Source: Psammoneis japonica (taxonomy: Eukaryota). From it: 20,000 nucleotides of DNA. Location: positions 56,994-76,993 of the forward strand of contig QPGO01000276.1 of the NCBI GenBank assembly GCA_008632985.1, read 5' to 3'. The translations under genes were made by a program, and so were the position numbers. Of the stretch, positions 1-20,000 are shown in pieces (position 1 is the stretch's first letter; each line of letters opens with the position of its first letter). Under the pieces are notes generated by a model. That model had not been told where the DNA came from and ran no database searches. It was given only the letters and a program-made list of their open reading frames with translations.

Positions 1-612
1 CGCAACTATACTGTCTTTTTCTTTCTCTTCTTCTTGTTGTAGTTTAATAAAAGCGTCCTCCCACTCGGTAAAGGTGCGAGTGACCACAAACTCTTCAATC
101 TTGAACTCGTCATTGAGTCGAAACCGCGTTTGACCTTCCACCGCCATGGGAGTATTCTTTGGAGCAATGCCACAACTCGTTCCAGTCCATGTTCCGGTTT
201 CATACCAATGCGCCACAACCCAATCGCCTCGTTGACCGCATTCTGGACCGTAATGAAATTTAACGACGCAATCCGGGTGAGCCGTGACAAAATCCATGCA
301 CCGATCCACCAAATCCTGTGCCTTGACAGTGCGTTTGCTATCGTTGATTCCACAAACGTCGCGAATTGTTGCCTCTTGAGCAAAACAATCAAGAATCATT
401 TCTGGATCTTGTTGATTGACTCCCTCAAAGTACTGCTGAACAACAGTCTCCATGGCTGCTTTTGTTTCTTGATCGGAAAGAGTAGTAGAAGAAAAAAGAC
501 TCATTCTGTTGGTGTTTGTGTCACATCGAACTTTATTGAGTCCCACTATGCTAAAGGCGCTTGACCTCGATTAAAGAGACGCCAGTATAATGAGCTTGCT
601 CTTTAGCATCAT
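1..612 (-). CDS. SnoaL-like/NTF2-fold protein, 3'-partial (runs off the window start); putative bipartite plastid presequence interrupted by one in-frame TAA at 573-571; frame open from Met at 504
   Basis: My translation of a minus frame absent from the ORF track (no stop inside the window): MMLKSKLIILASL*SRSSAFSIVG...MSLFSSTTLSDQETKAAMETVVQQYFEGVNQQDPEMILDCFAQEATIRDV...DFVTAHPDCVVKFHYGPECGQRGDWVVAHWYETGTWTGTSCGIAPKNTPMAVEGQTRFRLNDEFKIEEFVVTRTFTEWE. The pattern V..YF...N..D......F...A / GD.V...W...GT..G...GI.P......V.G......D.KI is typical of SnoaL-like proteins. TpA, CpG and Tyr content are normal here. Confidence 0.8.
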
Positions 613-658: not shown

Positions 659-865
659 TGTCGGAGGGAGTTCCCGAGATTGAATCGGATTAGTCGGGAA
701 TCCCGTAGAAGATCTTAGAGGACGAAGAAGTTCGAAGAACAGCAAGACTCAGAAGACATTTGACAAGATTGAATTTAGACAGAACAGATCAGAAAGATCA
801 TAATTTTAGAAAAGCAAAAGTTTACAGAGAGACAGAATACGTACAGCCCTTGAAGCCCTCGAACA
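659..865 (+). repeat. 5' LTR (207 bp)
   Basis: TGTCGGAGGGAG...CCCTCGAACA; aligns without gaps to 7409-7615 with 15 mismatches. Confidence 0.97.
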
Positions 866-935
866 TACTTCGAAGTATAATAGGCGAAGGCCCAAGAGGC
901 TGGGAGACTAGAGAGACACTTGAGTGTTAAGTAAG

Positions 936-1086
936 ATGGAGATTGCAGGAGAGAAATCGGTGCGCTTACCAAGCTTTGATGGTGAGCATAAGAACTTTCA
1001 GATCTGATGGATGAGGATGCTTGCGCATGCTAGTGTGTGCGGATTTGCGCAGGCAATGAACAAGACAGTTGAAGCAGCGGACTTGC
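936..1086 (+). pseudogene. copia gag N-terminus, interrupted by the nested DNA element
   Basis: MEIAGEKSVRLPSFDGEHKNFQI*WMRMLAHASVCGFAQAMNKTVEAADL has the copia gag LP.FDG..NF..W..R motif; it continues after the insertion at 3727 (PDAETDVVDETADD). Confidence 0.85.
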
Positions 1087-1162
1087 GGCAAAGATTTCAT
1101 GCTCGTGGCTGGTTAACGACAAGCCCATGACCCAATCTCTTTGTCTGACTTCGAGCCAAAGT

Positions 1163-1270
1163 GTTAGTGTAAATCGTTAAGTGTCATTTCCACTTCGACA
1201 CAAAGAAAGCTAAATGGTTAGCGTAAATCGTTAAGTGTCATTTCCACTTCGACACAAAGACAGCTAAATG
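1163..1270 (+). repeat. Subterminal tandem duplication, 2 x 54 bp
   Basis: GTTAGTGTAAATCGTTAAGTGTCATTTCCACTTCGACACAAAGAAAGCTAAATG (1163-1216) is repeated at 1217-1270 with 2 mismatches. Confidence 0.95.
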
Positions 1271-2575
1271 CTTAACGGCAGTGGTCAGATTTCAAAATCT
1301 GAGCAATACAGAAATGTCAATGATGAATTAGGATTTTTGATTGCATCTGCCGTAAATGTCATTACGCCAATTGCACTAATGAATACACAAATGAATTTGT
1401 ATTCCATCCTTTTCCTGAACTTTGATCTATCGGCATTTTCGATACGAGTACGCGATGACAACAATAAGGCATGCTTGTGTGTGTCATGGCCATAAGCTGT
1501 GAGGCGTACCATCACATTTGGATTGAACTCGGGGATCTTGATGTCGAAAGTAGCCATTTGTTTGACATTCGTGATTTTTCATCGCCCACAAACTGGGATT
1601 TCAACTGAGTCGAGTTGATGTTGGACGTGTTTCAAAGCACTGCATTTGATGAAACAATTGAGGGCTCTGGAATTATGGCATTTTATGCCATGGAGACTTA
1701 AAACAGTAAATGGGTTGACAATCAAGCAGTGATCGGGTTTGCCAACATTTCCAAAAATGTGACAACAAAAATTGCATCACTCAACAACCAACAACATCTC
1801 AAGAGATAGAAACAAGAAAAGTGACTCCTCTTTGCACTTGAATTAAAAGAGACAACAATGCACAACAAACATTTGAGAAGGACAAGAAGCTCTTGAATGC
1901 ATGGAACAAGAAGAGAGTCAATGAATCGCTCTTGCTTCGAACCTCATGACCTGTTCTCTCCATGATGGTGGTTGGCTGAAAGTTTGGTGGTGGTTTTTTA
2001 TGTGACTTGCAGCTTGAGGCATGTTGATGCATGAACACATGGCCCATGTGTGGTGTCACCTTTGGAATGTGCCACTTGTGGAGTTTGAGTGGACAACTCT
2101 CTGTGCTCAACCTTTGTCCGCCAAATGCTCCGTCAAAGTCCAGATGCTGCCCCATCCCACCCGACCATTGACACAAAACAGTTCTTGCAAAATGTTGTTG
2201 CCTGTTTCCCTCTTCCTCTGCAGAGCAGCTCTCTTGGTGACAGTGCTGCCCACATACCAGAATGTGCTCAAGAATGCTTTCCATTTTGCCAGCCAAGACA
2301 CCCAACTCGGGGCTGTGTGGGCTCGAATCTCTCTCAAGACAAGCTGACATTTGTGCCTGGCACTGGTGGCAACGCTGAGCCCTCCTTCCTGTTTGACTTC
2401 CCAGGAGTGTGCCCAGACCTCCTGCATGCTGGGTGGCTCAACCACAAGAGTTGCTGTCTTTGTTGGTTTTGTCAGCAGGATGTGCCAAGGCTGCTCTGGC
2501 CATGTGTGCACGCCTGGCTGGCACCACAAGTCCCGGTGCAAGGACAGCTCCGACAGCACTTTCTGCTGTCAGCAA

Positions 2576-2802
2576 AGAGTGTGAGCTGGCTGGACTGCCA
2601 AACCCCACACTTCACAGCTCCTTGGCAGTCACTCCAAATCAAGTGCCAACTTGGGGTCAACTGCACCTGGCTGGCTGCAATGCAAAGACAGCTGTGGCAG
2701 CACTTTGTGACAAAAAAGAGAGTGTGAGCTGGCTGGGCTCCCAACCCCACACTTCACAGCCCCTCAGCACTGGCTCCCAATCAAATGCCAGCTTGGGGCC
2801 AA
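2576..2802 (+). repeat. Diverged internal direct repeat, ~85-bp copies 143 bp apart
   Basis: AGAGTGTGAGCTGGCTGG...AACCCCACACTTCACAGC...AATCAA.TGCCA.CTTGGGG.CAA at 2576-2660 and 2719-2802. Confidence 0.8.
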
Positions 2803-3726
2803 TGGCTGCAAAGCCATTGTTGCAAATCCCTGTGCCTGCTCCCTCACACAGCTGTGCACAGGGTCAACATGTGTGGCCTTTGCAAGATGGGCCCCTGGCT
2901 GGCTGCTGACTCCTCAGCCACGGCTTGCAACAAGCCACCACAACACAGAGCATTGTGGGGTGAGTGCAGCACAGCTTGAACAAGCAAACCATGCTGAGAT
3001 CACCCAGAGTTGGCTGCTGTCCTGGGGCTCCATTCAAAGCTGAGCTGGGCTGCTTGGCTCCTTGGTGTGCAGCACATGCTTGGCATCACATTCTTGTCGC
3101 CAAGCAGCCACATGGCATGTGCCCACCATTTGTGCCTGCAACAGTGACCCCAGCCACAAAGAAGCCAACAAAAAGTTGAACCTGTTTTTGTGGTTGAAGA
3201 GTGAAGAAACAGTGAGCAAAGTTTGGTTCAAGATTTGTTGGCAATGCCAAGTGCTGGGCAACCAAAAAGAGGTGCCAAAAATGGCTGTTCTCACTCATTT
3301 CTCAAGAGGAGCTTGCACTCATGATGCAGGGTCTGAAGCAAGCACCAGTCAAGATGACAGTTTTTTCTCTCTGCTCCACTTAAAACACAGCCTTTGAGTC
3401 AATGTGGTGCTCTTTCAACAACTCACGCACACTGGGAGGAGCAGCTGGAGCCAGGGCAGCTGGCCTGGCAGGGCTTGGATGACACCCAAGCTGGGCTGCT
3501 CAGCCTGGTGGCACACACTCAGCGCCACATTGTTGCCCTCCTGCAGCCCGCAATGTGCCCCACTCTTGGCACCTGCAGCAACCACCCTGGACCAAAAGAA
3601 GCCAGCGCAACTCTGGCCATGGTTGCATGGTCAATTGTGTGTGTGTGTGTGTTCAACGGTTGATTCCCCTCTTTTTTTCTCTTTTCCTTTAACCGGCCAC
3701 GAACATGAAAAAATTGCCGGACTTGC

Positions 3727-5318
3727 CAGATGCTGAAACGGACGTTGTTGATGAAACTGCTGATGACGGAAAGAAGAAGAATGAAGCAAAGAAACGAAAT
3801 GTGCCGTTGCAGCAGCAAATTTCACGATGGCGTTTACTGCTGAAGGTCTGATGGGCATTGTGTGTGCTTCTCAGATGACTGAGAGGCCCGGTGGGCTGGC
3901 ATGGAAAACAGTGAAGGCATTGCACGAGATGCACATGCCGCAGGACCTGATTTCGAAGGTCGAGTTGCATCGCGAATTGAACAAAGTGACATTGAAGGAC
4001 AATGAAGAACCTGGAAAAATGTTTGAACAGTTGAAAGGGATTGAGAACAAGTTCAGTGCGGCATCACACAAGATTCCTGATGATGAGTTGATTGCCATCA
4101 CATTTGAGAAAGCACCCAAAATGTGCAAGTCGGTTGTGACAACTGAACAATGCATCCAAGGCAATGATTTGGAAATGAAACATTTGCAAGAAGCAACGAT
4201 GCAGTTGTGGAGGAACACAAGTGGTGGTTCCGAGCAAGAGAGTGCAAATGAAGTGAGTTTGACAGTGACAGAGTCGAGCATCATGTGTTGCAACTGTGGA
4301 GAGAAAGGGCACAAGGCCCATGAGTGCACCAAGCTGAGGAAACCCAAGAAAGGTGGCAGTGGTGGAGAAAAGAAATTTAAAGGAAAGTGCTTCAGCTGTG
4401 GTGAGACAGGTCACAGGAGCAAGGATTGCTGGATGAATCCTGACAACGCGGACAAGGCTCCAGCATGGTTTAAAGAGAAACAGAAGAAGAGCAATGAGAC
4501 CGGATTGTCAAGTGTGGATGCCGGAGCTAAAGTCGAGCTGTTGCTGACAAGCACGGAGACTGTGGAGTTTCCAGCAACTCTGAAATTGTTGGAGTCGGAA
4601 GAAGTGTGGGTGGCAGATTCAGGATCATCAGTTCATTCTTGTGCAAGCATGAGAGGTGCCAAGAATGTTGAGCGAGCAAGTGCTGATGACAAATTGACCA
4701 TCAGCAACAGTGCAGAGGAAGGAGCAAAGTCTGTTGTGGACTCACCTGGTGCCGCATGCAACAAGAATGGATGTGAGCTTGTGGACGCCACTCTGAAGGA
4801 TGTCAGCATTTTGCAACAAGCAACAAGTTCAACCCATTTGGCATTGCCAAGATGCAGATGCAAGGATGGGCACTTGGAGGTGACAAGAATGTGACATGGA
4901 TTCGCAAGAATGGTGTCGAGATGAAATTCGACATCAAGATGCACACGAATCGAGGTGTGGCATTCGCAATGCACATGAAACGAGGACAAGGCGAGTTGTC
5001 CAACGCAATGACACCAAGGAGGCTCAGCATTGAAAGAGCCCATTGTGAGTTGGGACATCCAAATGAAGACAAGACAAGATGCATCACAAAAATGTTGGGT
5101 TGGGAATTGCTCATGGTGGTTTGGTGCTGTGCGAATCGTGTGTGGTGGGAAAAGCCAAGCAAAAGAATGTGCCACAGGAGAGTGAACACAAACCTGCTCA
5201 GGATGCAGGCAACCAAGCATTTTTGGATGTTGCAAGCATCAAGCAAGTCAAGGATGGTCCCAAGGTCAACTCCAAATGCTGTTGGAGGATTGTGGTTGAT
5301 GAGCGCACGCAGTTGAAC
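3727..5318 (+). pseudogene. copia gag (UBN2-like region, two CCHC zinc knuckles), aspartic protease and integrase N-terminus; frameshifted
   Basis: CCNCGEKGHKAHEC and CFSCGETGHRSKDC knuckles; protease VWVADSGSSVH; integrase HHCC region AHCELGHPNE...CESCVVGKAKQK; first core Asp region AFLDVASIK...WRIVVDERTQL. Confidence 0.93.
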
Positions 5319-5401
5319 CCCATGAACGCCAAGAGGCGATTGGAGAGCTGGCGCACCCTGGAGAAGACATTGCACTGGAAGCAACACCTCAAGAACCCCA
5401 T

Positions 5402-7370
5402 GTGGAAGTCGGGGAGAGCACAGATCAACCAACGGAACATGATGAAAATGAAAATGGTGACAACGAAGAGCCAACGGAGTCTGTTGGCGGGGGAGAGATG
5501 AATGAATCGGGTGATTCTGCCAATTTTGCACCAAATTTTGTGCCAACGACTCGATCTGGAAGAGCCATGAAACCGCCCAATGGACTCATTGCAGAGATTC
5601 AAAATGTCAAATTGACACCCGCTGAACAGAAATTTTGTGCTCACATGAAAGAACTGAATGTGTTGTCATCATTCTGTGAAGATGGTTTTGATCTGATGAT
5701 CATGCATGGACTGGAGCCAAAAGGACCAGAAGCATCTTTGGTCGGAGCCGGAGTCGGAGCCGGGTTCGACAATGCGGTGGAATTGAAAGTCATGAAGCAC
5801 AACCAAGCCATGCAGACTGATGATGTGGAAGAATGGAATGATGCAGTTGAGGAAGAGCATGGCAAATTCCGGAGGTGCAAGGCATGGAAAGAAGTGCCAG
5901 CTGATGAGGTGCCGCACGATGCGAAAATCTTAAGTTCAATGTGGGCCATGAAGAAGAAAGCAGACGGAACCTGTCGTGCAAGGATCAATGCTTGTGGGTT
6001 TGAGCAGATTGATGGAGAGCACTGCAAAGAAAGTGACAAGTCAGCACCAGTGGTGAATGACATCACAGCATGAATCGCGTTGGTTTTGATTGTTGTGGCG
6101 AATTTGTGGGCCGAGCTGCTGGGCATTCAAGGGGCATTTCTGAATGGAAGATTTGCTGAAGGAGAGAAACTTTGTGTGAAAGTTCCACAAGGATTTGAGA
6201 GATTCTATCCAGAAAACGATGCATTGTTGTTGTCAAGGACAATTTGTGGATTGAAACAAGCAGCGATGTCATTCTGGTGCAAAACGCAGGAGGCATTCAA
6301 GAAGATGGAACATGCAAGGAGCCAAGCTGATCCCTGCTTGCAGTTCAAGTGGTTCAAGGAAGGATTGGTCATGTGGCTGACATGGGTTGATGATTGCTTG
6401 GTGGCAGGACCAACCAAACAAGTGAAAGAAGTGAAAGATCAGATGAAAGGTCTGTTCAACTGCACCAAGCTAGGAGAATTGAAAGAATGTGTTGGATGCA
6501 AGGTTGACATTGAAAGAGACAAAGGATGGGCAAAACTTGCACAACCAGTGATGATGCAGAGCCACAAAGACGAGTTTGATTTGGGAGAAGAAACTTGTCC
6601 AAGGACTCCAGCGCCGGGAGGCTCATCACTTGTGAAAGGCAAAGACAAGGAATTAATGGAGCACAAGGATCAAAAGATTCACAGATCTGGAACAGGAAAG
6701 TTGCTGCACATGATGAAATGGACAAGACCCGAGATTCTCAATGCAGTGAGAGAGCCATCAAGGCACATGAGTGGTGCTGTGAGAGCTCACATGGCTGCAA
6801 TGAAGTGGGTGATGCGATGCTGTGTGAGAACACCGAAGAGAGGATTGTTGTTGAAACCAAATGCCAAGTGGAGCAGAGCCAAGGAGCATGAATTTGTCAT
6901 TGTGGGCAAAAGTGATTCAGAGTGTGCAAAAGATCAGGAGACGAGGCACAGTGTGAATGATTGGAGCATGCATCTACACGAGGTGCCCATTTCGATGCGA
7001 AGCAAAATGATGCCCGTTGTTGCTCTGTCAGTTGCAGAAGCAGAGTTGTTCAGTGCCACTTTGTGTGCACAGGATGTGATGCATGCTGTGAGGGCATTGA
7101 ATTCCACGGGATTAAAGTGAAGCCACCTGTGAAGTCATGTGTTGACAACAAGGTTGCCAAGGATTTGATCGACAATTGGAGTGTGGGCGGATGCACGAGA
7201 CACATTGAAGTCAAGCAGCATTTTTTGAGAGAACTGAAGGAAGCTGGCATCATTGATTGTGTTTGGGTCAGTGGAGATGACATGACTTCCGACATTTTTA
7301 CAAAGAATTTGTCTGGCCCTACATTTGAAAAGCGTGCAATGAAATTTGTCGGCAATTGCAAGTGCGTGGA
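5402..7370 (+). pseudogene. copia reverse transcriptase and RNase H; one premature TGA and one frameshift
   Basis: WAMKKKADGTCRARINACGFEQ, GAFLNG, VKVPQGF, RTICGLKQAA, ADPCL, TWVDDCLV, TRPEI; RNase H SDSECAKD, ALSVAEAEL, VDNK, TRHIEVKQHFLRE, SDIFTKNL. Confidence 0.96.
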
Positions 7371-7398
7371 GAGCACAACTGAGACACACAAGATTCCT

Positions 7399-7408
7399 GA
7401 GGGGAGAG
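7399..7408 (+). other. Polypurine tract of the copia element
   Basis: GAGGGGAGAG directly abuts the TG of the 3' LTR. Confidence 0.9.
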
Positions 7409-7615
7409 TGTTGGAGGGAGTTCCCGAGATTGAATCAGATCAGTCAGGAATCCCGCAGAAGATCTTAGAGGATGAAGAAGTTCAAAGAACAGCAAGACTC
7501 AGAAGACATTTGACAAGATTGAATTTGGACAGAACAGATCAGAAAGATCGCAATTTTAGAAAAGCAAAAGTTTGCAGAGAGACAGAATGCATGCAGCCCT
7601 TGAAGCCCTTGAACA
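7409..7615 (+). repeat. 3' LTR (207 bp)
   Basis: TGTTGGAGGGAG...CCCTTGAACA, followed by TSD TGTGT. Confidence 0.97.
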
Positions 7616-7718
7616 TGTGTTTCATGGTTGTTGGTTGTCATTTTGATTATTTTTGCTGCAGACCTTGCAAGCGAAACACGTCATCATCAGTCACGAGTGA
7701 CAGATGTTTGAGCCAGTC

Positions 7719-9007
7719 ATGAGTCCAAAGATCCACCCGACAGCAGGCAGATGGCAATGGCACAGAGCATTTGGTTTGTTGCATTTTTTGAGTTTGTTGC
7801 TGTCACTCTTGCTTGTAAGTTTCAAGTTGCTGTGAGGCTTGTGGTCACTGTGATTGCTGTTGTCTTGCATTGCTGACAAAGAGGGACAGGAGACAGGCAT
7901 TGTAGAAATAGATTCAGTTGCCCGTGATGACCGTGTGGAACCTGATGAAAAGAAGCACGTGACAAAAGTCGTGCTGATGGGTCTTGCTTTTGTCTTGCTG
8001 GGCATGTCTCTTGGATTTGCATCCTTCTACCTCATGTTCCTTGCGCAGTGCGGGGACCTTGTTGAAGAACTGGAGGGACATCACAAGTCGTCTGTGCAAA
8101 GGTTGCAATTTCAATGCAAGCAGTGCGTTTCGGAATCCAAGAATGGCACCGAGTTGGAGGAAATCAAGGGATAATTGGAAGCTCAAACCACCCTAAAGCA
8201 GCAGCACCAGGGTGTCAAGGAAGAGCTCATCAAGCTTTGCAATCAAGACAGCATGTTGAATGAGCAAATTCAAAAGCTTCGAGAGCAACTTCACGAAGCC
8301 CAGAATGACCTGTCGCGGTTCATGGATGAGCACAAAAGGGAAAAAGCGGAACAAATTTCTGAGCAAGCCAAGCAAACTTCTGAGCAAGCCAAGAGAGAAC
8401 AAGACAAGTTGCAGGAAGAAAATCAGTGCCAGCTCCTGCAAATCTCTGAACAAGCCAAGAGCTTGCAGATCTCCAATCCACAGCAAACGAGTCAACTCAA
8501 AAAGCACCCAAGCTTGGTGCTTTGAATTTGGACTTGGAGAAATGTCTCTCAGAGGCTCAGGCAGGCATGGAGCCATTTCAGAAAAAGATTGATGAACAAG
8601 CCCAGGAATTGGGGGAACTTTGGGTGGAGAGGATGCAGTTGCTTGAGCACCAGAGCACGTCAGCTGAAACAGTTGCGAAACTCAAAGAAGATTTAAAGCC
8701 CGAGACACACGAGATCATCAAGTGCACGGAACACTTGCAGGCAATGTTGATGCGAGAAAATGTTTTGCATTGATGCAAGCAATCTGCCAAGGATGCATCT
8801 GCCAGCCTGCCGTGTGTGGATGAACATGATGAATGTGAAGCATGGGTGAGCAAGGGCAAATGCACAGCCAGCCCCACCCACATAAATCGATTCTGTCGCA
8901 AAATGCGTAAAATTTGTCCGCAGAATGACGACGACACTGAAATCAAGTGGATTGATGACAAGGCTGCACCAACTCTTGATGAGAAGTTTGCATCGAACAA
9001 GCAGTGA
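7719..9007 (+). pseudogene. Host-type gene remnant: hydrophobic N-terminus, TM helix, long coiled coil, C-terminal ShKT domain; putative intron 7815-7889
   Basis: ATG at 7719, MSPKIHP...FGLLHFLSLLLSLLL; a 75-bp GTAAGT...GCTGAC...CAG intron joins in frame to ETGIVEIDS; TM VVLMGLAFVLLGMSLGFASFYLMFLA; E/Q/K-rich heptads; CVDEHDECEAWVSKGKCTASPTHINRFCRKMRKIC (8813-8917) fits ShKT with one Cys lost. Stops at 8172 and 8771 and a frameshift near 8480-8520. Confidence 0.7.
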
Positions 9008-10382
9008 GAATCTTGCGAGTGCAAACGTGCCCCATGGCAGCTTAGGATGCCCACGCACATGAACCCGTTGTGCATCTGGCACGGAAAATGCCTGCAGCCC
9101 TACAACCAAAGACACTCACATCACTCTGCGCCACATCCAGCATTTTGCTCTTAGCACTGCAGCTCCCGAAAAGACACTCTCGTCAATCACAAGCATGACT
9201 CATCTTCCAACACAGCATTGCACAATTGCGAGCCTCTTGTGAGCAGGCTTTGAATCATTTCCTCAAAGTTCAATCAAAACACCAATGGAGCTCAAGGTTT
9301 CTTGCGAACGCTGCGCTGTTTCTGGACCCAATTGCCCACATGACGATGGATCTTTTTTTTACATTTCCTTGTTGGAACATGACAATGAGCATTGTCACAC
9401 ACTGGCATGTGTTGAAAGGTGTTCAATCTTTCACAGTTGGCATCCAATCCCCTGTGATGTGCATGACCTGACTCCAAACCCCAGTCAAAGCTACAATTGA
9501 AACGAAATTGGTCAGCTAAAGGTTGCGTCAAGCAGCTGCTAGACCGCGTGTCATGGACGGTCCCCTCCGGATGGGGCCCCGACGCAATTTACAATCAGTG
9601 GCAAGTCCTCAAAAAAGCATGCCATGGCTTCTATCCCATTGCAAGTGCTTTTTGAATCCTCCCCACCTGTCTCTTTGCCGTTTTGCCTGGCAGCAAAATT
9701 GCAATTGTTGTGGAATTAGCCGGCTGAACAGTTTTTCAGCAAAGTTTCAATGAGGCAGCAGAGTGAAATGATTGCTTGCCCGTGGAAACCAGCAGTTGAA
9801 GTTTTGGACAGGAAAACCTTCTCACAGGCTCCAGCAAGCAGCAATGTGCAACAAAAAAGGAGGGGGGACAGGTGGCGTAATCTGTCATCTGCTCTGCCAC
9901 TGAGCTACATTGCAATGGCTGCTGTGGTTGGACTTGAACCAACGATCTGATCCTCAGGAGGGCAAGATTGAATTGAGTTGCTGTTTGCCACCTGTTTCTG
10001 TGGAAGTTGTTGAAACATGTAAAGAGTGTGATGAGCAGATGCTCGAGTGCAATTCAATGTACGTGCTGTACACAGCTGGCGCGATGCAGTCTGGATCGGA
10101 TTTTGAGTCATGGCACGCAGAAAGAGACTCTTCGTGCCCCTGTTTAGATGGAGACATCTGGACGTCCGGCATGTCCCACCATTCGAAAATGACTTTTAGC
10201 TTCTCCTTGTGGGAGGGTGGCACCTCCAATCCAAGATGACCGGAAACACTCCTCAGAACTGTGACCGGCAAATCTCTTGGTTCCATCTCTCACTTTTCCA
10301 GCTTTGTTGGAACAGGAACATTGATCACTGTGACTGGATCATCTCAAAAGCTTGGAAAAGTTGCTCTTTCTCTTTTTTCACC

Positions 10383-12853
10383 ATGTCTGACTACTTTGCT
10401 TCGGGTCTTGATGACTGTGCGTTTGTCAACCTCGTGCATCAGCTCGAATCGGATGTGCTTTTGCCTCACTCGTCACAGTCTCCATCGTTGCCCACTCCTC
10501 AGGCTCGCCCCCTTGGGGCTTTGCTTCAGGGGGTCGCGGGGCTTCAAACCCTGGTGTGAGGGGCTCAAGTGCGGGCAGGGACTCTGGGAGTCACAGTCAT
10601 GGGCCTTCAGACATTGACCGGGCAGAATTGGGAGAGGTCATCTCCATTGAGGATGTTGTGCATCCTCTCTTCCGGGAGGGGCAAAGCACCAATGATCAAG
10701 TGTTGGATCGCTCATTGCATGTTGGTTTCTTTGGGCCGGAGGAAGGGAAGAGCAAGCGTGGTGCTGGGGAGACAGAGGAGGAAGGTGCATCTCCTTCATC
10801 ATCTCATGTTCCGCTTTGTTGCATTGCTTGGCTGGAAGGGACCAATGGCAGCCGTTGCCTTGGTGTCAAGGGAGGCGGCGCTGCTTTCTGTCTGAAGAAG
10901 GCGAGAGAGAGTGCCAGGTCAAACACAAGGGAGACAAGCTGCAACTCCCGTCCGATGGGTTGCTGGCAATTCTCAAAACACTGGACACAGCTTTTTGTCA
11001 ACCGGTTTTGGATGGTGGGTTCATTGCCGGTGACGTTTTGGTCAGTTGGGAGACAAAAACTGACACCTTGTCTGGTTGGCGTAAAAAGTTCTTGGTCGTT
11101 GGGGACAGTGAGGAGGTGATGACAGAGGAGGAGCTGGGAGCCTCTCTCCTTGAGTGCAAAGCGGCAGCTGATTTCAAAATGCCCGGTGGGAAGAAAGGTT
11201 CGAGCCTCCCACCTCCAGGTGATGGGAGAGCATTTGGTGCATTTAGCCCTTGCCGGCCGATGATCACAACAACCCCCACTCAGTTTTTGGCAGCAAACAA
11301 GGGTCCATCTGCCTTGGCCTGAGTTGCACAGTCCGTGGAGGATGGCTCACAGAATTTGGGAGAAGTTGGGGTTGACATGGGAAACCACTCTTGCACACAG
11401 GGCAAGCATTCCAACAGTGCAACGGACCTGCTCAGTTGAAAATTGGATCAGTTGGAAGCAGCCGTTGGGGTTCCTCCTCTTGGGTTTGATCAGGCCATCA
11501 AAGCACCTGCCATCTGGGGGACTTTGGCTAATGTCACGGCTGGGTCTCAGCCTCAGAGTGGAACTGACACAGTGGATGAGATCAAGGAGAAGCTCAGGGC
11601 ATTGGACTTGAAGCTTGTGACCCACTCTAACAAGCTGGTTGCGTCCTTCAGTGCACAACTTCAAACCTTTGAGGGTCAGATGTCAGGATTTGCGGCCAGC
11701 AGCGATTTCAACTCCCTGAAAGAAAATGTGTGTCGTGTGCATCAGCAGTTGGCAGCCAAGGTCCGAAATCTGGAATTGTTGGGGCCCCTGGCTGGGGGGG
11801 TGGCTGCAGGAGTTGGTTTGGGCTCGGTCACGTCCAGTGTGGAAGCTCGCATCGCGCGATTGGACCAGGACTTGAGCAAATTAAAGTCCAAGTCAGACAA
11901 AGCGGCTGTGAAGTTCTCCAGAGTGGGCGTTGCCTTGTGCGGAGAGTGCCAGGCTTGGATGGCAAGGCATTTCCTGTCCAGGGCCTGTGGGTGTCTCACT
12001 GATGCAGTTGTCTCAATGGACAGGATCAAGGGAATTGAGCCAGCCGCCCTGTGTCACTGCTTGGGGCAGTGGGCCAAATGTGAACATTGAGACTGAGGAG
12101 GATGCCCGGACCTTGGCAGGGTTCCAGTGCAGGATGCCTCACTTGCTGGACTCAGGCTCAGTCAAGGCAATGGAGTTGCTGGGGTTGCATCCTTCACACT
12201 TGGACAAGGCACCTGCACACGAGCATTGCAGAAACTTGGGAACTGAGCAATTCATTGAGTCAAAAATTGGGACCGCAGAGATGGGCGTGATGGAGGACAC
12301 AAATCAGCGGGTTGCAGCCGGAACCTTTGAGAGCCAGGTGGTGCGGGACACTCTGTCTAAGTCAGTTGCTTTCATTCGTTCCTTGTGTGCCTTCATCAAT
12401 TTGACCTGCAATTCCTTGACAAGTTTGAGCAAGTTTTCAAAGAAACAAGCATGGTCTTTAGCTTCAAAGCTGGTTTGTTGAGTGTTTGATGACATCCAGA
12501 AGGCGCGTTTGGGGGTGTTCACGACGATCAAGGGGACCGATCCGGATTCTGTCTGCAGCAAGATTTTGTGGACAGTCTTTCGCGCCCATGACATTGTGTC
12601 GGAGCACACGTCAGCCAGTTTTGTGTTGATTGCGTTGGAGCATGTCAAGTTCCTGGTGACAAATTCTGGCTTCAAAGCAGTGACGGATCTCCAATCGACG
12701 GTGAACTTGCTCATGGAAAAGTCCAAGAATGCAAGCTTGGCAGCTAAATTGGCACAGGCCGGGGGTGATTTGGCCCACGTGGAAACTGTTGAGCTTTGAA
12801 ACGAGATTAAAGAAATGGGCAAATGGATTGAGACATTGGAAAACAAGAAATGA
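10383..12853 (+). pseudogene. ORF1 (gag-like) of the YR retrotransposon, fragmented
   Basis: Consecutive + strand fragments from MSDYFASGLDD to ...KWIETLENKK*, including a Cys/His cluster (RCLGVKGGGAAFCLKK..CQVKH) and coiled-coil stretches; assigned by position upstream of RT. Confidence 0.6.
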
Positions 12854-12857
12854 GGGT

Positions 12858-15800
12858 CATGGGGACCGGAGAGCGACGACCTCACAGACCCGCTTGTGAA
12901 CCTGTGTCTGCCGGCAGCCCAGGTGACACAAGGCATGTGGTTTGGGGGGCAAAACCCTTTTCTTTCTGTGGTTCATGTTTGGTTGTTGCTTCTGGTCCCC
13001 CTGTCTGGCTGCTGTCTCTGTGGGTGGTAGAATGGTCAGAATTCTTTTTGGCGACCAACGGTGCGGGAGACACACAGTGGACCCAGTTGATTTTGGAACT
13101 CTTTTGATCGCAAATGGGACCTGCGCTCACCCCTGTCCCCTTGAACAAGGCACCCCATGTGGTGGACAAGGTGGACTTGGCCCTGGTGTCAGGCCTGCCC
13201 CCCTTTTTGGAAGCTTCAGGTTGGTTGATTCAAAACTCCCCTGTGATCATGGTCCCGGTGGGGAGGGGATCCCGGTGGTCTTTAAAAGGTTTGGGCCACT
13301 GTGACAGCCTTGGTGTGTCACACCCTTCTGTGGGGGGTGTTGCGTCATTCCGGATGACCCTGTTTTGACAACGAATCATCCTCCCGATTCTTTTGGATGG
13401 GCTGCACCTGTCCATTGGCCACATTCTAGACCATGAACTGGCAGCCCCTCCGGTGGATCCCCGCTTTCCTGGCACTTCTTACCGGGAGGACGACAAGCTT
13501 CATCCGGGGTCTCTGACCCGACCCATTGTTTGCCCATCCCACAGGTCACAGACAGGGTGGGTCACCCGCACACCATCTCCAGATGAAATGCTTGCAGCTT
13601 GGGACTTTCCCCTTCGACATTGCAGCCCGGTGGTGGTGGAGAAGGTTCGGGGAGGGGAGGGTCTCTTGGCCATCATCCCTTTGAACATTCTGTTGGCACC
13701 TCTGGAGTCATTTGTCCATGGGGTTGGTGCAAAATGAGGGTCTTGTACCTCTGGGGTCCAAGGGGGATCAACGCCAGCCGTCGGGCAATGAGCAACAGCA
13801 ACATGGCTCAAGGGAGTGGGTGGCTGCTTGCCCCACTTGTGGACTGACATCTCTCTCATCACCACCAAGGCTGCAAAAGGGGACAGCATGGCCCCCCCAT
13901 TCTGGCTGTGGGACAAGCAAGTTACGTTGGTGTTTCCAGAATTTGGGGCCACCTTGCCTGCTCTCTGGACTTTGGGATTGCGGCAGTGGCCCTGGCACAC
14001 CACTCGTTCTTTTCTCAGCTGTCTGTGGCACACATGTGGGTTGTCCTGGTCAGACTCTTTGGGGGTTCTCTGCAGGGAACACGGGGATGCCGAGGGGCAT
14101 CGTCAGGGGGGGGGTGTTGCCAACCCCCGCTCCCGCCCTTGTTGATGGACACAACTTCAGGGGTGGAGGTTCTTCTCCAGGTGACGGAGAGTTCCTGGTG
14201 GGGGTGGGACAGCGGCTCCTCACTGCTGTTTTGGCGGTGTCCTGCTCCCGCACAACGCACTGCCATGCATGATGGCATCCCAATCTTCGTTGAGGGACCC
14301 CTGCCGTGTAATTGGAAGAGGCAATGTGTGAGAGGAACCCCTCAGGAAATCCAGCAAATGGCAGACAAGATTCAGAAAGTGTGGACCCAAGGACACATTC
14401 AGCGGGGTCATGTGGTGAGTCTTGCTGATTGCTTCTGGGTCCCCAAGACAGTGCAAATGGAGACCCAGGGTCAAAATTTAGTTGAGGTTGTGGAAGATGT
14501 CCCCGCATGGTCTGCAATGGGACCTCTTTGGGTTTGAATGAGGCGCTGTGGGCCCCCTCCTTTTTCTCACCCACCCCAGCTTCGGTCTTGGGCTGTGTGA
14601 CAGTGGGTGCTTTTTCTGTGGACCTTGACCTAAGTGACATGTTCCTAAATTTTTTCATGGATCCAGCGATTTGCCCATGTGCTGGGGTGGACTTGTCCCC
14701 TCTCACCCTTCATCTCCCAGGAGAATTGACTCCTCCCAGCTTGAAGCGGTGGACGAGACTTTTCATGGGAATGCGACCGAGCCCACATCTTGCTGTGCGG
14801 TGCTGCCATTGGGCCAACGAAGTGGCAAGAGGTGACCCACTGAGAGCCAACAACGCAATGGGTTTCAACAAGGTCATTCTAAACTTGCCAGGTGACCCAA
14901 ATTTCAGCGTGAGTGAGCCGATGGTCATGAAATGGAACACGAAGGCATGATCTCTTGCAGGAGACGTAAAAACCTTTGTTGATGACTTGCGTGGGGTGGG
15001 TTTGGGTGAGGAGGCGGCATGGCAGGTGGGCCACCAAATGGCATCTAGGCTCCAACATTTGGGGCTGCAGAATGTGAGTCGAAAGGTTCGGCCTCCATCG
15101 CAAGCGGAAACGGGGGCCTGGGCTGGCTGCATTTTTTGCATTGCAAATGGTGACGTGACACAGTCAGTGTCTCAAGCCAAATGGGACAAGGCAAAGGGCA
15201 TTGTTGCTGACCTTCTCCAAATGCAAGAGGGCACACCAGACCAGTGCTCACCCTCCTTTGGACACAAGGACTTGGAATGTAAGCGAGGCTTCCTGGTTCA
15301 CTTGGCAATGACCTGCCCCTGGCTTGCCCCGTTTCTTAAGGGTGTGCATCTTACCTTGGACTCCTGGTGGCCAAATCGGAAGAAGGACAGATGGGCCATG
15401 TCAGGAAAGGAGTTCTCTAGTTGGGCACACCATGTTGCTGAGAAAAGGGGGACAGACGTGGTTGATCTCACAGAAAGCTTGTCGGGAAGGAAATCACCTG
15501 GTTCTGTAACGGCAGTGCCTAGACTGCAGTCAGACTTGCAAGTCATTGCTCGAATTCTTGAATCTGATGCTCCCTCTGTTCATTTAATTTGGTCTTCAAA
15601 GATCATGGCAGTCCTCTGTGGGTTTGGAGATGCTTCTGGTGAAGGTCTGGGAACATCAGTGGAAACCAAGGACGGGACCATTTTGCACCGCATTGGGGCA
15701 TGGGGGGAAGATGAGGCTGGAAACTCATCAAATTGGAAATGACTGTCTAACACGGTAGACACCATGGAGGAGATGGCTGAGGCAGGTGACTTGGAGGGAG

Positions 15801-16664
15801 TCAGCCTTTGCTTCTTTGCTGACAATTCGGTTTTGGATGCAGCTAATTACAAAGGCACGTTGTCTAGCCTGATGCTGCTTGAGCAGGTGATTTGCATGAA
15901 GGTGCTCAAGGTGAAGCACGGGTTCATGTTCCATCTTGTCCATGTGTCGGGGAGCCGGATGATTGCCCAAGGTGCTGATGGGGTGTCACGGGGTGTCCTC
16001 TCTGAAGGAGTGATGAGTGGTGTGAAGATGTTGTCCTTTGTTCCCCTCCACCTCAGCCCTGCAGCTCAGCCTCCAAAATTGTTTGATTGGATTTGCTCTT
16101 GGGCTGGAGCTCCGACCCCAGAACTGCTTTTGCCTCTAGATTGGTTCCAGAAGGGCCATGACATCTCTGGATGGGAATGTCCAAAACACAAAGCAATGGA
16201 GATGCCCACATTCCATCCCGGAACATGTTGCCAGGATAAAGTGACAGGATTCCTTCCACATTTCTGCTTGTCCAAGGTTGATGACCCTGGAATGGCAGAA
16301 GCAATCACACAAGGCTGCAGATTTAGTTTTCATGGTCCTGGCAGGAGCGGGTCCCTTCTGGCCAAACGAAATGCATGAACCTCTGCTCATTGGCCTTGCT
16401 TTTCCATTTGTTCCTCACAGGCCCTGGCAGTTGTGGGGTGCCCCTAAAATGCACGCAATGAACTGGGCCCTGTGCTGTGTGTGGGAAAATGACAATGTGG
16501 ATGAAAGGAATCTTTTGTGCCAATTTTGTGCACAGTGCAGGTCTCTGGCCACCTTGTCGGAAGGCATGGTGTCCAGGCTGTTGTGCTTCAAGCAGAAGCG
16601 TGACGTTCCATCTGGGGGGCACGACGTTGCAAGAGGATCCAAACAAGGACAAACTAGCTCCTGA
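12858..16664 (+). pseudogene. pol of the YR retrotransposon: long N-terminal extension, reverse transcriptase, RNase H, C-terminal tail
   Basis: RT motifs FWVPK, MVCNGTSLGLN, DLDLSDMFLNF, WTRLFMGMRPSP, KTFVDDLR (FVDD at 14975-14986), WAG; RNase H GFGDASGEGLG, SSNWK*L, FFADNSV, HLVHVSGSRMIAQGADGVSRG. Confidence 0.9.
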
Positions 16665-16728
16665 TGCAGATGGGGGACACGTGGAGGAGAATGAGAGGCA
16701 TTGAAAGCCATGTGACAAGAACAAATTC

Positions 16729-17961
16729 TTGTGCGCTCGTGTGGGGCACCATCTCATGGTTTTCTTTGAGTGTGATTTCTGTGTCTTCCACAAACTGTGT
16801 CAATGGGAGCCCCACCCTACGTTGCCATGGGATGAAGTGGCTTTAGCGTGCATCCATCGGGTGATCTTGGATGCCTTCTGGAGCCGAGAGACAGCAAGGA
16901 GAGGGCTTGCCCTCTCTGAGCACCTCGGGCTCTCAGGACCTCATCTGGAGCCAGGACCACTCCCAGCACATGACCATTGCGGGTGCAAGGTGGCCATGCA
17001 GATTGTTTTGGGATCAACCTCCCCTGGGCGGCATCCCACCTCTTGCACACAGTTCAACACTGTTCGGAAGTTACGGACAGCTTGCACCAACCAGGTTCAA
17101 GCCGCAGCTCAAGCCAATTCTTGCCCCCTGGCTTTAGCTGATTTAGAAAGAAAGCAGCATCTGCAGATGTGCAAGGATCCCTGCACATTGTTGTGGTTCC
17201 AACACTTTGTGACAGGATGCAAGAGACGCATGGGACAAGATTGGTGACCTGACCGAGCTGTCTTGGCAGAGACAATGCAGCACCTCCTCCCTTGAGTGAA
17301 GGAGAGAGATTTCAACTCGGAAAGTGACATGGAGCAGTTCACCTGTCTGGTGGCAGGACTGTGTTTTGTGGCGAGCTTTGTGCTTTTGTTGAGAGGTTCC
17401 GAGTGATTGATGATTGACTTGAATGCCATGGCGAGATGCCTCCCGAGGAACTCCTTGCATGTGATGGCACCTTTGTTGGAATGGGTCAAGGGAGAGCATG
17501 GAAAGCGGTGACACTTGTTGCCATGTGTTGATGTTGCTTTGTCAGGGATCAATGTCCATCAATGGGTGGAACAGGCAGTGTCCATCCACGCAGGTTGAGG
17601 GTGGTCTCGGGGCCTGGCAATCTCTGATGCAGCAGCTGTTGTGCTTTCATCTCATGAGCTGAACTCCCTTTTGCACACTTGCTTGGGAGACATTTGTGAT
17701 GAACATCCTGCTCCATTCACTGCAGACATCGGTTCCCATGCGGACATCCAAGAAAAACATGACGTCAGCCGATCTTTTTGCAGAGGATCAGACTCTTGGG
17801 CTGTGGCCCAAAAGGTTTCACCAGATGACATTGATGTGGTGAACCACTGGAAGAAGAAGGAGGGGGCGGGGGGAGTGAGGCCCACCAACAAGATGCAACA
17901 GCATTGTGCTGACATCTCTCTTCTTCTCCCATCACTCTTACGCTGTGCCAAGGCCATGTGA
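16729..17961 (+). pseudogene. Tyrosine recombinase of the YR retrotransposon
   Basis: Catalytic-order motifs LLRGSE (R), VKGE (K), SRSFCRG (HxxR-equivalent), VNHW (W) and MQQHCAD (catalytic Tyr position, now Cys at 17905-17907); several TGA stops. Confidence 0.82.
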
Positions 17962-18204
17962 CTTGAGTCTGTCCCTGACTTTGGACAGCATTGGAAGGTG
18001 ACGAATTTCTTCTCACTTGTGAGGTGGCCACTGCCTGGGAGTCTCATCAGGGGGGAACATGTGCTCGGCTTGGCCCAGTTTGACCTGGGGAGTCGCTGGA
18101 CCAAGCACTGGACAAGATCAGCAGAGCACTTTCATTCGGTGACCTGTGCTCCGATGTGGGGGAACCGGGTCTGGCATTTCTTCTACAATTTGGGGGGAGA
18201 AAAA

Positions 18205-20000
18205 ATGTTCAAGCCTGAGATGAAGTTGCACCCTTCATCATGCTGAGCAGCAACATTTGCCATGCAACACAAAAAGATGTCAAGGAGAAAATCATCTGCC
18301 ACACACAGAAGGAGTGTGAGCAAGGCATGCATCTGGCAAGATCTCCAGAGGACATGAAATGCAAGGACTGTAGTTCAGAGAACCCCCGTCACAAGCATCA
18401 ATGGTGGAACCTGACATCACCATTGTAGACTGCCAAGAGAAGGTGCAGACAAAAGAGCAAGAAAACAAAGAGCTGAAATGTGAGCACAAAACAGAGCTGA
18501 GTGACTGCTGCAGAAAAGTGGCACAGCTCAAAGTCAAGAAAACAAGATGACAATGATTGCCAAGATCTTAGATGATTCCTGCACCAAGTTGATGAAGCAG
18601 AGAATGCAAGGCAGTCCCACCAGTTGTCCCAGCACAAGGGATGATCCAATCAAGTTGTTGAAACTGATCCAATCTGTTGTGTTTGACTCATGAGAGGTCA
18701 ACATCCATTCTGTGCATGTGCCAATGCCATGAAGAACATCTCAGATGTGAGGCAACAAAAGAACACAACAAAAGAACAAATCACCAAATGACCACCTGCT
18801 CATGTTCAAAACCAGCAAGATGTTGCAAGCAAAGGACTGGGAGACAGGATGCTGGATGGATCCATCTCCAATGCCAAAGAATGTCAAGACAGAGATCATG
18901 CAGCACTGCGCAGAACAGCACTCAAGGGGTCAGCAATCAAGACATGGATGACCTGCCTTCTCATGGCAAACAGCACCAACTGTCATTGCAAGAGTTTGAA
19001 GAAGAGCTTTGTGAGAGTTTGGGTCCAGGCAAAAACACCCACCCGAAGTCTCCAGACAAGGCAATGGATGCATTGTTGAACCACCTGGAAGACAGTGATC
19101 CTCAAAATTGACACAAGAGCAAGAAGAGTGGCAAACAGAAAGACCACAAGGGTGGCAATGGAAACAGTGAGAACAACAACAATCAGTCTGACAATGCAAA
19201 GGACCAGAGCCATGCCCAGAAGAGCAGCAACTGTGAAGTGGCAGTGTGCTGCTCAAGTCCCCAGGCTGCAAACACTGAAGGATGTCATGCACAGCAACTG
19301 GCTCAGGAGAGCAAGAACAAAACCAGACACTGGGGGACAGAGTCATGTGCAGACTCGAGTTGGCAATGACAACCGCTCATTGGTGAACAGTGACAACATG
19401 AGTGCCCACACCACCAGATCTGACCAATCAACCTGCTCTGGCCAAAGCAAAAGTGCTGCATGGCATGGGTTGCAAGCAGCAAACAAGAGACCAGAGACAA
19501 GTGCAAGCCAAACCAACAAAGGCATCAAGAGATGTGAGATCACCTTCAACAATGGCTCTGCCCTCAGCATGGCAGCAAGCCCAAGATTGATGCACAACAT
19601 GCAACCAGCCAAGATCAAGATTGACCTGTCCACAAGTGCAGGAGAGGACACCCTGGACAAGGACTGCACACCATGCCCCAATGGGGAGGGGTGCAAAGCT
19701 TGGAAAAGAGAACAGGACAGCAAACATCCTCAGCCTGCCAGAGCAATGGACAAGTTCAGGTTGCTGGACAAAAGAAGACTGGCAAGCAAGTCATGGTGTT
19801 CAGAGTTGATGACATTGGACCACATGCACTCCTCACACCAAGCCAGCAATTCTTGGACCACACAAAAGATCTCCAAGAAAGTGAGTTGTGTGTGAGCATG
19901 CTGTCAAAGAAAATGAAAAAGAGCAACAAGAAGCACAGGAATGCACCCGGAGCTGTGGCTCCAATGGTGGAACAGAGCTCCAAATGCTTCGCTGAGAGAG
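18205..20000 (+). mobile_element. Second, strongly decayed LTR retrotransposon (diatom copia/CoDi-type) gag-protease, continuing beyond the window
   Basis: Gag-like KPEMKLHP, HATQKDVKEKII..QKECEQGMHLARS.EDM and LCESLGPGKNTHPKSPDKAMDALLNH; protease-like ITFNNGSALSMAASPRLMHNM...LSTSAG (recalled family pattern LDNGST.S...P.LV.NI...TNAG). No LTR identified. Confidence 0.65.

Follow-up and report, generated by a model that had tools for sequence, protein, structure and literature searches.

What removed almost every TpA dinucleotide from most of a 20,000-bp stretch of the genome of the diatom Psammoneis japonica (contig QPGO01000276.1, positions 56,994 to 76,993; the whole of this stretch is referred to here as the window)? 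From position 1750 to the right end of the window, TpA is nearly absent, and this part is filled with mobile elements, among which are a Copia retrotransposon, with one of its long terminal repeats (LTRs) erased and the other intact, and a second, unrelated retroelement. We show that TA was changed to TG or CA in the DNA after integration, and we consider it likely that the explanation is a TpA-specific hypermutation of integrated mobile DNA, in which a host adenine deaminase would act as a defence.

Dinucleotide counts were expressed as observed/expected ratios, and positions 1750–20000 were compared with 1–1749. The erased stretch holds 97 TpA where 1113 are expected (0.09) and 402 of 1152 CpG (0.35), together with 3697 CA and TG (1.63), while AT, AA and TT stand at 0.87, 1.18 and 1.24 of expectation. 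In the flank, TpA is at 0.50 (70/141) and CpG at 0.93, and the G+C content is 0.433 compared with 0.505 in the erased stretch. A first-pass annotation of this DNA had reported runs free of TpA at 18571–20000 and around 2260–3380, against some 20 or more TpA in bases 1–600, with AA, AT and TT still abundant. The counts agree: there are 20 TpA in bases 1–600, and the two runs extend from 18569 to the window end (1431 bp, the longest) and over 2255–3381 (1126 bp). A further run, at 4528–5931 (1403 bp), and the loss of CpG in the same stretches were not mentioned by the earlier reader. Given a normal density of about one TpA per 20–25 bp, chance cannot account for runs longer than 1 kb.

The stretch is a nest of mobile elements adjoining an ordinary diatom gene, and consists of a Copia element, a terminal inverted repeat (TIR) transposon inside the Copia, an element with reverse transcriptase/RNase H (RT/RH) and recombinase-like genes, and two unassigned repeats. 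The earlier count of four unrelated elements was thus a fair one, with three classes identified and two stretches unassigned. The features are listed below with their TA and CG ratios, where edited denotes sequence that has lost its TpA.

1–570, minus strand: host gene with a SnoaL-like domain (Pfam SnoaL_2, 3.1e-09), extending past the left end of the window; unedited control (TA 0.40, CG 1.04)
659–868, plus strand: Copia 5′ LTR, a direct repeat with 7409–7618; unedited, 10 TpA and 9 CpG retained
936–1073, plus strand: Copia gag N-terminus (residues 1–46 of relatives), placed by tblastn with 6 related polyproteins; unedited, TpA present (Copia 5′ end, 659–1087: TA 0.62, CG 0.90)
1088–3717, no strand: nested non-autonomous TIR DNA transposon, recognised by a target duplication and inverted ends, splitting gag between residues 46 and 47 (left arm 1088–1749: TA 0.48, CG 0.88; right arm 1750–3717: TA 0.05, CG 0.15)
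3717–7416, plus strand: Copia gag-pol with zf-CCHC and RVT_2; edited, broken and spread over three frames (Copia body: TA 14/263 = 0.05)
7409–7618, plus strand: Copia 3′ LTR; edited, 8/10 TpA and 7/10 CpG gone
7619–10399, no strand: edited DNA without assigned family, no Pfam match (TA 28/190 = 0.15, CG 0.46, CA+TG 1.60)
10400–18400, plus strand: second retroelement, with RT/RH and a putative tyrosine recombinase (YR), approximate span with undefined ends (TA 47/434 = 0.11, CG 0.37)
12946–16655, plus strand: RT/RNase H polyprotein of this retroelement, unrelated to Copia; edited, in three frames, with relatives found by HMMER and tblastn
16456–17844, plus strand: second gene of the same element, probably a tyrosine recombinase; 31 relatives, mapped by tblastn
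18401–20000, no strand: repeat without assigned family, the most fully erased stretch, running past the right end of the window (TA 2/93 = 0.02, CG 6/93, CA+TG 1.87)
1750–20000, no strand: the whole TpA-erased, CpG-poor stretch, with its right limit beyond the window

CpG falls to 0.06–0.48 of expectation in the TpA-erased stretches. Against 38 relatives with normal TA and CG, scaled to 18,251 bp, the erased stretch lacks 838 TA and 358 CG and has gained 1037 TG+CA, a gain that is covered by the TA and CG losses taken together. The two processes are nevertheless separable, since some of 78 related Copia loci from metagenomes, whose TA ratios are mostly 0.4–0.8, are CpG-poor and TpA-normal (e.g. 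L002, with CG 0.10 and TA 0.55).

TA was changed to TG or CA in DNA after integration

The LTRs of a retrotransposon are identical at insertion, whereas those of the Copia (659–868 and 7409–7618) now differ at 16 of 210 positions, every one of them at an ancestral TpA or CpG; editing therefore took place post-integration. At 8 of these sites the 5′ LTR reads TA and the 3′ LTR TG or CA, at 7 sites CG in the 5′ LTR is matched by TG or CA in the 3′ LTR, and at the remaining one a CpG was lost in the 5′ LTR (7 of 10 CpG were thus lost in the 3′ LTR and 1 of 10 in the 5′ LTR). When recoded as purines and pyrimidines, the two LTRs are identical over all 210 nt. TpA changed at 8 of 10 sites, compared with none of about 168 positions that were neither TpA nor CpG (Fisher p = 2e-12), which puts the TpA change at least about 100-fold above ordinary substitution, as a relative estimate from one LTR pair. 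Read on the edited strand, the 8 changed TpA were TAC (5), TAT (1), TAA (1) and TAG (1), while both TpA surviving in the 3′ LTR are in TTAG. The first-pass annotation had given 5 of 7 as TAC; the number of TAC stands, and the total is 8.

The same change can be read in the coding sequences, using columns in which at least 70% of the aligned relatives carry Tyr. The 15 such columns of the Copia now hold Cys (8), His (4), Tyr (1), Gln (CAG, 1) and Phe (1), and the 8 columns of the RT/RH gene hold Cys (3), His (2), Tyr (1), Glu (1) and Phe (1); Tyr was thus replaced by Cys or His in 17 of 23 columns of two unrelated elements. Under a stricter control, with one reference and the 78 related metagenome loci, Cys or His was found in 35 of 830 Tyr columns (648 were Tyr), compared with 9 of 12 in the window (Fisher p = 2.5e-10). 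Other residues were mostly retained, such as Gly (44/50) and Trp (15/17). Arg was retained at 18 of 27 columns in the Copia and 14 of 29 in RT/RH, with losses mostly to Gln, Trp, His, Cys or Lys, as would be expected from CpG loss; Met was retained at 8 of 15 columns in the Copia, and four are now Val, as would be expected where TpA spans codon borders.

Both strands were hit. In the sense-oriented genes, Tyr became Cys (TG) 11 times and His (CA) 6 times. At 2464–5, 3355–6, 5986–7, 6023–4 and 6173–4, a paralogous copy in the contigs of run X1 shows CA against the window's TG, or TG against CA; two of these sites, 6023 and 6173, are conserved Tyr codons, read as Cys in the window but as His in the paralogue. 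The run also yields contigs that match 3692–19220 in eight pieces with 0 differences at a depth of 25–39, although this run may be the source of the window itself and hence is not independent support. Taken together, TA was changed to TG or CA in DNA after integration, as a change of A:T to G:C, and only at TpA. The earlier reading of a context-specific loss, as opposed to a generic GC-biased conversion, is in line with normal AT, AA and TT and with LTR differences restricted to TpA and CpG.

Neighbour preference of the change

The 97 surviving TpA of 1750–20000 were sorted by their neighbours (Y, pyrimidine; R, purine) into YTAR (51), YTAY (23), RTAR (19) and RTAY (4), with 52 relatives of normal TA ratio (235 kb) as the baseline. 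From the latter, 20.1 YTAR, 48.4 mixed (YTAY and RTAR) and 28.5 RTAY were expected, against 51, 42 and 4 observed (chi-square 69, p about 1e-15). The order predicted by the first-pass annotation, with RTAY far below the mixed classes and these far below YTAR, was thus found, and an equal depletion of all NTAN classes was not seen. Its counts by eye were also close: in the RT/RH+YR element (10400–18400), where it had put about 30 of some 47 survivors in YTAR and about one in RTAY, there are 29 YTAR, 17 mixed and 1 RTAY among 47, and TAT/ATA, described as nearly absent, is contained in 10 of the 97 survivor tetramers. RTAY is the rarest class in the Copia, in 7619–10399 (counted from 7617) and in the RT/RH+YR element, and too few survivors remain in the two smallest stretches for a ranking. 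By tetramer, the survivors include CTAA/TTAG (28), TTAC/GTAA (19), TTAA (14), ATAG/CTAT (4), ATAC/GTAT (1) and ATAT (0).

Class survivals are 0.26, 0.09 and 0.014 for YTAR, mixed and RTAY, and when ordered by the base 3′ of the edited A, survival is highest for G and A, followed by C and then T. Computed from the class survivals, TAY carries about 3 times the hazard per strand of TAR. From the survivors by themselves, the effect of a pyrimidine after the A cannot be told from that of a purine before the T, whereas mixed tetramers of known ancestry can separate the two. Among these (3 LTR sites and 7 Tyr codons preceded by a pyrimidine), the edit fell on the strand reading TAY in 9 of 10 (binomial p = 0.011), while Tyr codons preceded by a purine, which present TAY on both strands, became Cys and His equally often (5 each). 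The bias is set by the base that follows the A and not by the one that precedes the T.

The preference falls short of a required motif, whereas the first-pass annotation had named TAY as the target motif. YTAR sites, which present no TAY on either strand, have themselves been depleted by about 74%, from about 193 expected to 51. TpA itself is the target, and a following pyrimidine gives an approximately 3-fold bonus, i.e. a rate preference. The products lean the same way, with an excess of 373 YTGY/RCAR compared with 176 RTGR/YCAY, or about 270 compared with 73 when the CpG share is subtracted. On the other hand, three partly erased metagenome loci failed to show this survivor context; in L008, for example, 6 YTAR, 33 mixed and 11 RTAY remain. 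Either the preference depends on the host, or the survivors of such loci lie mostly in unedited parts.

Extent of the erasure and the elements that carry it

The host gene, the Copia 5′ LTR and the first 46 gag codons are unedited and CpG-normal, while the rest of the same Copia insertion is erased and CpG-poor. The unedited and edited parts of the Copia belong together, as indicated by the target duplication of the TIR element and the continuous numbering of gag residues across it. TA ratios are 0.02–0.15 in five mobile stretches and 0.40 in the one host gene in view, so that an equal depletion of active genes was not seen in this gene. Its best named relatives are all diatom proteins, from Phaeodactylum (72%) and Seminavis (66%), as well as Fistulifera, Chaetoceros and Mayamaea, and the Copia starts about 90 bp upstream of it.

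The first-pass annotation placed the start of the stretch at about 1750. The depletion does begin there, but the position is not the edge of an element, as it lies inside the nested TIR transposon. This 2.6-kb element (1088–3717) has a 9-bp target duplication (1078–1086 and 3718–3726) and inverted ends of about 29 bp, of which 24/29 match, and is therefore a non-autonomous TIR DNA transposon; no Pfam match was found for its open frames. Its word depth in run X1 is about 3000–6800, compared with 25–40 for single-copy parts, and both arms are at high copy depth. Contigs of this run join 3718 back to 1090 with 5–9 variable letters between, and the copies are therefore arranged head to tail or circular. 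They differ from each other mainly by transitions at TA, TG, CA and CG sites, and at 1808 and 2000 the window reads TA where most copies of the family read TG. The family as a whole shares the two-faced state of a TA-normal left arm and a TA-free right arm. An edited non-autonomous copy has thus continued to multiply. Two tandem 54-bp units (91% alike) lie at 1154–1261 in the unedited left arm, where contigs of run X1 skip or step back.

Partial forms of TpA erasure occur in other environmental sequences. Three of the 78 related metagenome Copia loci (L008, L052 and L056) are partly TA-erased, with ratios of 0.18–0.24. In L056 (1–4018), the first 2.5 kb hold 7 TpA and the next 1 kb holds 48. 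L008 (1–4602) is TA-poor and retains 10 of 15 conserved Tyr, as if selection on a still-active element opposed the editing.

With a zinc-knuckle gag, an RVT_2 reverse transcriptase and flanking LTRs, 659–7618 is a Ty1/Copia element with its integrase core deleted. Its polyprotein matched Pfam zf-CCHC (1.9e-07) and RVT_2 (3.9e-15), and its gag-pol is 41–61% identical to relatives by tblastn and up to 62% identical to full-length ones. The integrase core (about residues 580–786 of relatives, some 200 residues) is missing at 5315–5393, and this loss made the Copia non-autonomous, quite apart from editing. A TGA stop in the unedited start of gag (around 1003–1010), at a Trp pair conserved in relatives, is an ordinary G>A change outside the TpA process.

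The RT/RNase H polyprotein of the second retroelement (12946–16655) has 517 relatives in an exhaustive HMMER search of a representative library, and was mapped by tblastn with 11 relatives of 1235–1427 aa. The family consensus bears YVDD and DAS...TDN motifs, which we take to be the marks of reverse transcriptase and RNase H, and an Atlas lead pointed to RVT_1 (score 0.95). None of 6 scanned members of the family (five at E <= 0.001, four at E <= 5) matched Pfam, and a search of PDB sequences with one relative returned matches at chance level only. The family looks like a retroelement clade outside the coverage of Pfam. The second gene (16456–17844) has 31 relatives with 39–51% identity, two of which show LRG-E and H/Y-x-x-R-R-G-S stretches that are presumably recombinase boxes. 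A PDB profile search gave 0 matches for this gene, the Atlas offered no usable lead, Pfam matches were at chance level only, and its AlphaFold model (mean predicted local distance difference test score, pLDDT, 44.3) was too poor for a fold search. From the motif reading in relatives, it is probably a tyrosine recombinase; the earlier name of YR element is to that extent a plausible label, with this motif reading as its support.

Outside the Copia, 23 open frames had no Pfam match even at E = 5, and many of them would be closed by stops had TAA and TAG not been lost. The repeat at 18401–20000 has a depth of 80–300 in run X1 and more than 10 internal skip joints in the contigs; it is an internally repetitive, multi-copy element.

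Mechanism, rival explanations and known systems

Since TpA is self-complementary, either strand is open to attack, and each site that is hit turns into TG or CA, which is no longer a target, so that the process moves towards exhaustion. The damage to genes is severe: stop codons of the types TAA and TAG disappear, Tyr codons turn into Cys or His, Met gives way to Val where TpA straddles two codons, and CpG decay costs Arg residues. The most likely chemistry is adenine deamination by a putative host enzyme, which would turn adenine to inosine in DNA. Such an enzyme may be aimed at silenced, cytosine-methylated chromatin, with the DNA next to an active gene spared, and its role would be the defence against mobile DNA.

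Several points weigh against this explanation or narrow it. A>G on one strand cannot be distinguished in sequence from T>C on the other. The link to silencing is suggested by shared CpG loss and position. The TIR element lacks TA in its right arm across about 100–200 copies, a state that is therefore inherited and did not arise by editing here; the edge at about 1750 is thus a feature of the TIR family, and the local limit of editing may lie anywhere in 1088–3717. The contrast between the 5′ and 3′ parts of the Copia assumes a correct assembly across this repeat of about 200 copies. Ordinary divergence accounts for about half of the non-matching conserved columns (42/81 in the Copia and 36/62 in RT/RH). 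Finally, the strand test on products is weak, as the A/B ratio of 1.28 compares with 1.06 +/- 0.16 for single baseline loci (range 0.75–1.44) and varies from 1.08 to 1.67 among the elements, while a per-base product test (excess of TGA, TGC, TGG and TGT) was discarded, as it returned impossible fractions (-0.16 to 1.04); it was incoherent because the window exceeds the baseline loci in G+C content.

Two alternatives accept the erasure and read it differently. It is unlikely that the YTAR-rich survivors arose afterwards, as new TpA from CA or TG through a context-biased C>T change, and hence are no trace of an enzyme preference. Such a change would agree with the 55 of 97 survivors in which TAG or CTA occurs, as C>T at CAG/CTG would produce, and with the TA of the window at 1808 and 2000; however, it leaves unexplained why TTAA (14) and TTAC/GTAA (19) survive when ATAT (0), ATAC/GTAT (1) and ATAG/CTAT (4) do not, as well as the choice of the TAY strand at 9 of 10 sites with a known ancestor. 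Quite unlikely, too, is a modification of the T of TpA, e.g. its hydroxylation to 5-hydroxymethyluracil, followed by mispairing or misrepair to C. T>C and A>G on the other strand look alike in sequence, and dinoflagellates put 5-hydroxymethyluracil in place of thymine preferentially at TpA and TpC; the context bias would merely move to the base 5′ of the modified T, a formally equal description between which and ours the data do not decide. Nevertheless, 5-hydroxymethyluracil is not known from diatoms, and this base mostly still pairs with A.

The remaining alternatives are far less probable. Hyperediting of RNA from A to I by an ADAR-like enzyme before reverse transcription, with copies born edited, might be suspected as two of the affected elements are retroelements and ADAR prefers an A with a 5′ U neighbour. 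It is very improbable here, since both strands were hit inside a single element (Cys 11 times, His 6 times), a DNA transposon is also affected, the 3′ preference is for a pyrimidine and not for G, and ADARs are a metazoan family. Moreover, reverse transcription cannot produce LTRs that differ at 16 sites within one insertion, and for the Copia, barring a chimeric assembly, the LTR pair already refutes this alternative. We give as little credit to intrinsic composition, selection against TpA/UpA or GC-biased gene conversion among repeats. A mild shortage of TpA is universal, as in the 78 related Copia loci with their ratios of mostly 0.4–0.8, but the ratios here are 0.02–0.15, non-coding LTR sequence is affected, conserved Tyr codons were destroyed, which selection would not be expected to do, and GC-biased conversion would strip AA, AT and TT as well, all of which are normal. 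Least probable of all is a sequencing or assembly artefact, such as miscalls at modified TA. Run X1, as the possible source of the window, would share it; still, contigs match exactly over 15 kb at a depth of 25–39, the effect is regional, TA was turned into two different products, and partial forms of the same loss are present in 3 of the 78 loci from unrelated metagenomes.

Post-integration hypermutation at TpA, our preferred explanation, has a close counterpart. In mutation accumulation lines of Bigelowiella natans, two integrated viral regions gained 231 new mutations, of which 230 were A>G or T>C; TpA was the site of all 230 GC-ward mutations, and the rate was about 1000 times the background, according to the main text of a single preprint (Mettrop et al. 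2026, bioRxiv 10.64898/2026.01.13.699255). The same text describes 124 TpA-poor, CpA+TpG-rich clusters enriched for RT and DDE domains, and names an ADAT2 homologue as the candidate enzyme (bioRxiv 10.64898/2026.01.13.699255). As far as that text goes, the two cases share a change of TpA to TpG or CpA only, on either strand, in foreign or mobile DNA and far above background, and the trace of low TpA with high CpA+TpG, seen there in RT- and DDE-rich stretches. Four marks of the process in B. natans are found in the window: confinement to TpA, the A>G/T>C direction, restriction to mobile DNA and a rate far above background.

They also differ. The host is a diatom (stramenopile) here and a chlorarachniophyte (rhizarian) there; the targets are transposons here and giant-virus or virophage inserts in the preprint's account, where the TA ratio of the viral region is 0.45, compared with 0.02–0.15, near saturation, in the window. 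CpG is lost alongside here. We found a 3′-pyrimidine preference, while flanking bases are not examined in the main text of the preprint, although its per-site supplement may hold them. The process was watched there in real time, according to the same source, and is deduced here by comparison. No report of TpA erasure in diatoms was found in full-text literature searches; a paper on SPLASH that came up in them has no bearing on the matter. The process in the window is of the same kind as that of Bigelowiella, which is known from this one preprint, and is new for diatoms.

Other systems resemble it in part. Repeat-induced point mutation (RIP) of ascomycete fungi is likewise a dinucleotide-specific transition hypermutation at the DNA level which ruins repeats, alongside cytosine methylation, but it runs in the opposite direction, turning CpA to TpA and making DNA AT-rich, whereas the present process removes TpA and raises G+C. 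RIP (C>T at CpA) was thus ruled out for the window (TpA 0.09, CA+TG 1.63, G+C 0.505 compared with 0.433 in the flank). Editing of animal retroelements by APOBEC (on cDNA) and ADAR (on double-stranded RNA) shares the defence against retroelements, the clustered transitions and a neighbour preference. APOBEC, however, makes C>T (read as G>A) and ADAR acts on RNA with a 3′ G, and both leave the LTRs of a new insertion identical, whereas here resident DNA is changed on both strands and the LTRs diverge. ADAR-type hyperediting was ruled out because both outcomes occur inside one element and the LTRs differ.

In every substrate tRNA of TadA and ADAT, A34 follows U33, and the A edited here likewise follows a T, as with TadA, ADAT2-ADAT3 and the base editors derived from them. 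The survivors give an order of TAT > TAC > TAA and TAG, which the U-A-C-G loop of TadA substrates would not predict. The decay of 5-methylcytosine at CpG accounts for the CpG part only (CpG 0.06–0.48; 7/10 lost in the 3′ LTR).

The window therefore shows a signature of the B. natans type driven nearly to completion in a diatom, i.e. in a different major lineage, and one of great ecological weight, with some species that can be genetically manipulated. It adds the proof of post-integration editing from an LTR pair, a quantitative context rule (TAY about 3 times TAR) to which any candidate enzyme has to conform, the coupled loss of CpG, and evidence that an edited non-autonomous transposon was still able to multiply. 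We put forward only tentatively, as a possibility, that one dedicated defence, based on a DNA adenine deaminase and mirroring RIP, is common to diatoms and chlorarachniophytes; it would be steered to silenced, methylated mobile DNA and erase its TpA fully, with the 3′-pyrimidine preference as the fingerprint of the enzyme. If so, TpA-free islands would be a general and easily scored record of genome defence across the stramenopile, alveolate and rhizarian (SAR) supergroup, and the enzyme would be a natural A-to-G editor of double-stranded genomes. Whether this defence exists outside Bigelowiella, and which enzyme carries it out, are now testable questions.

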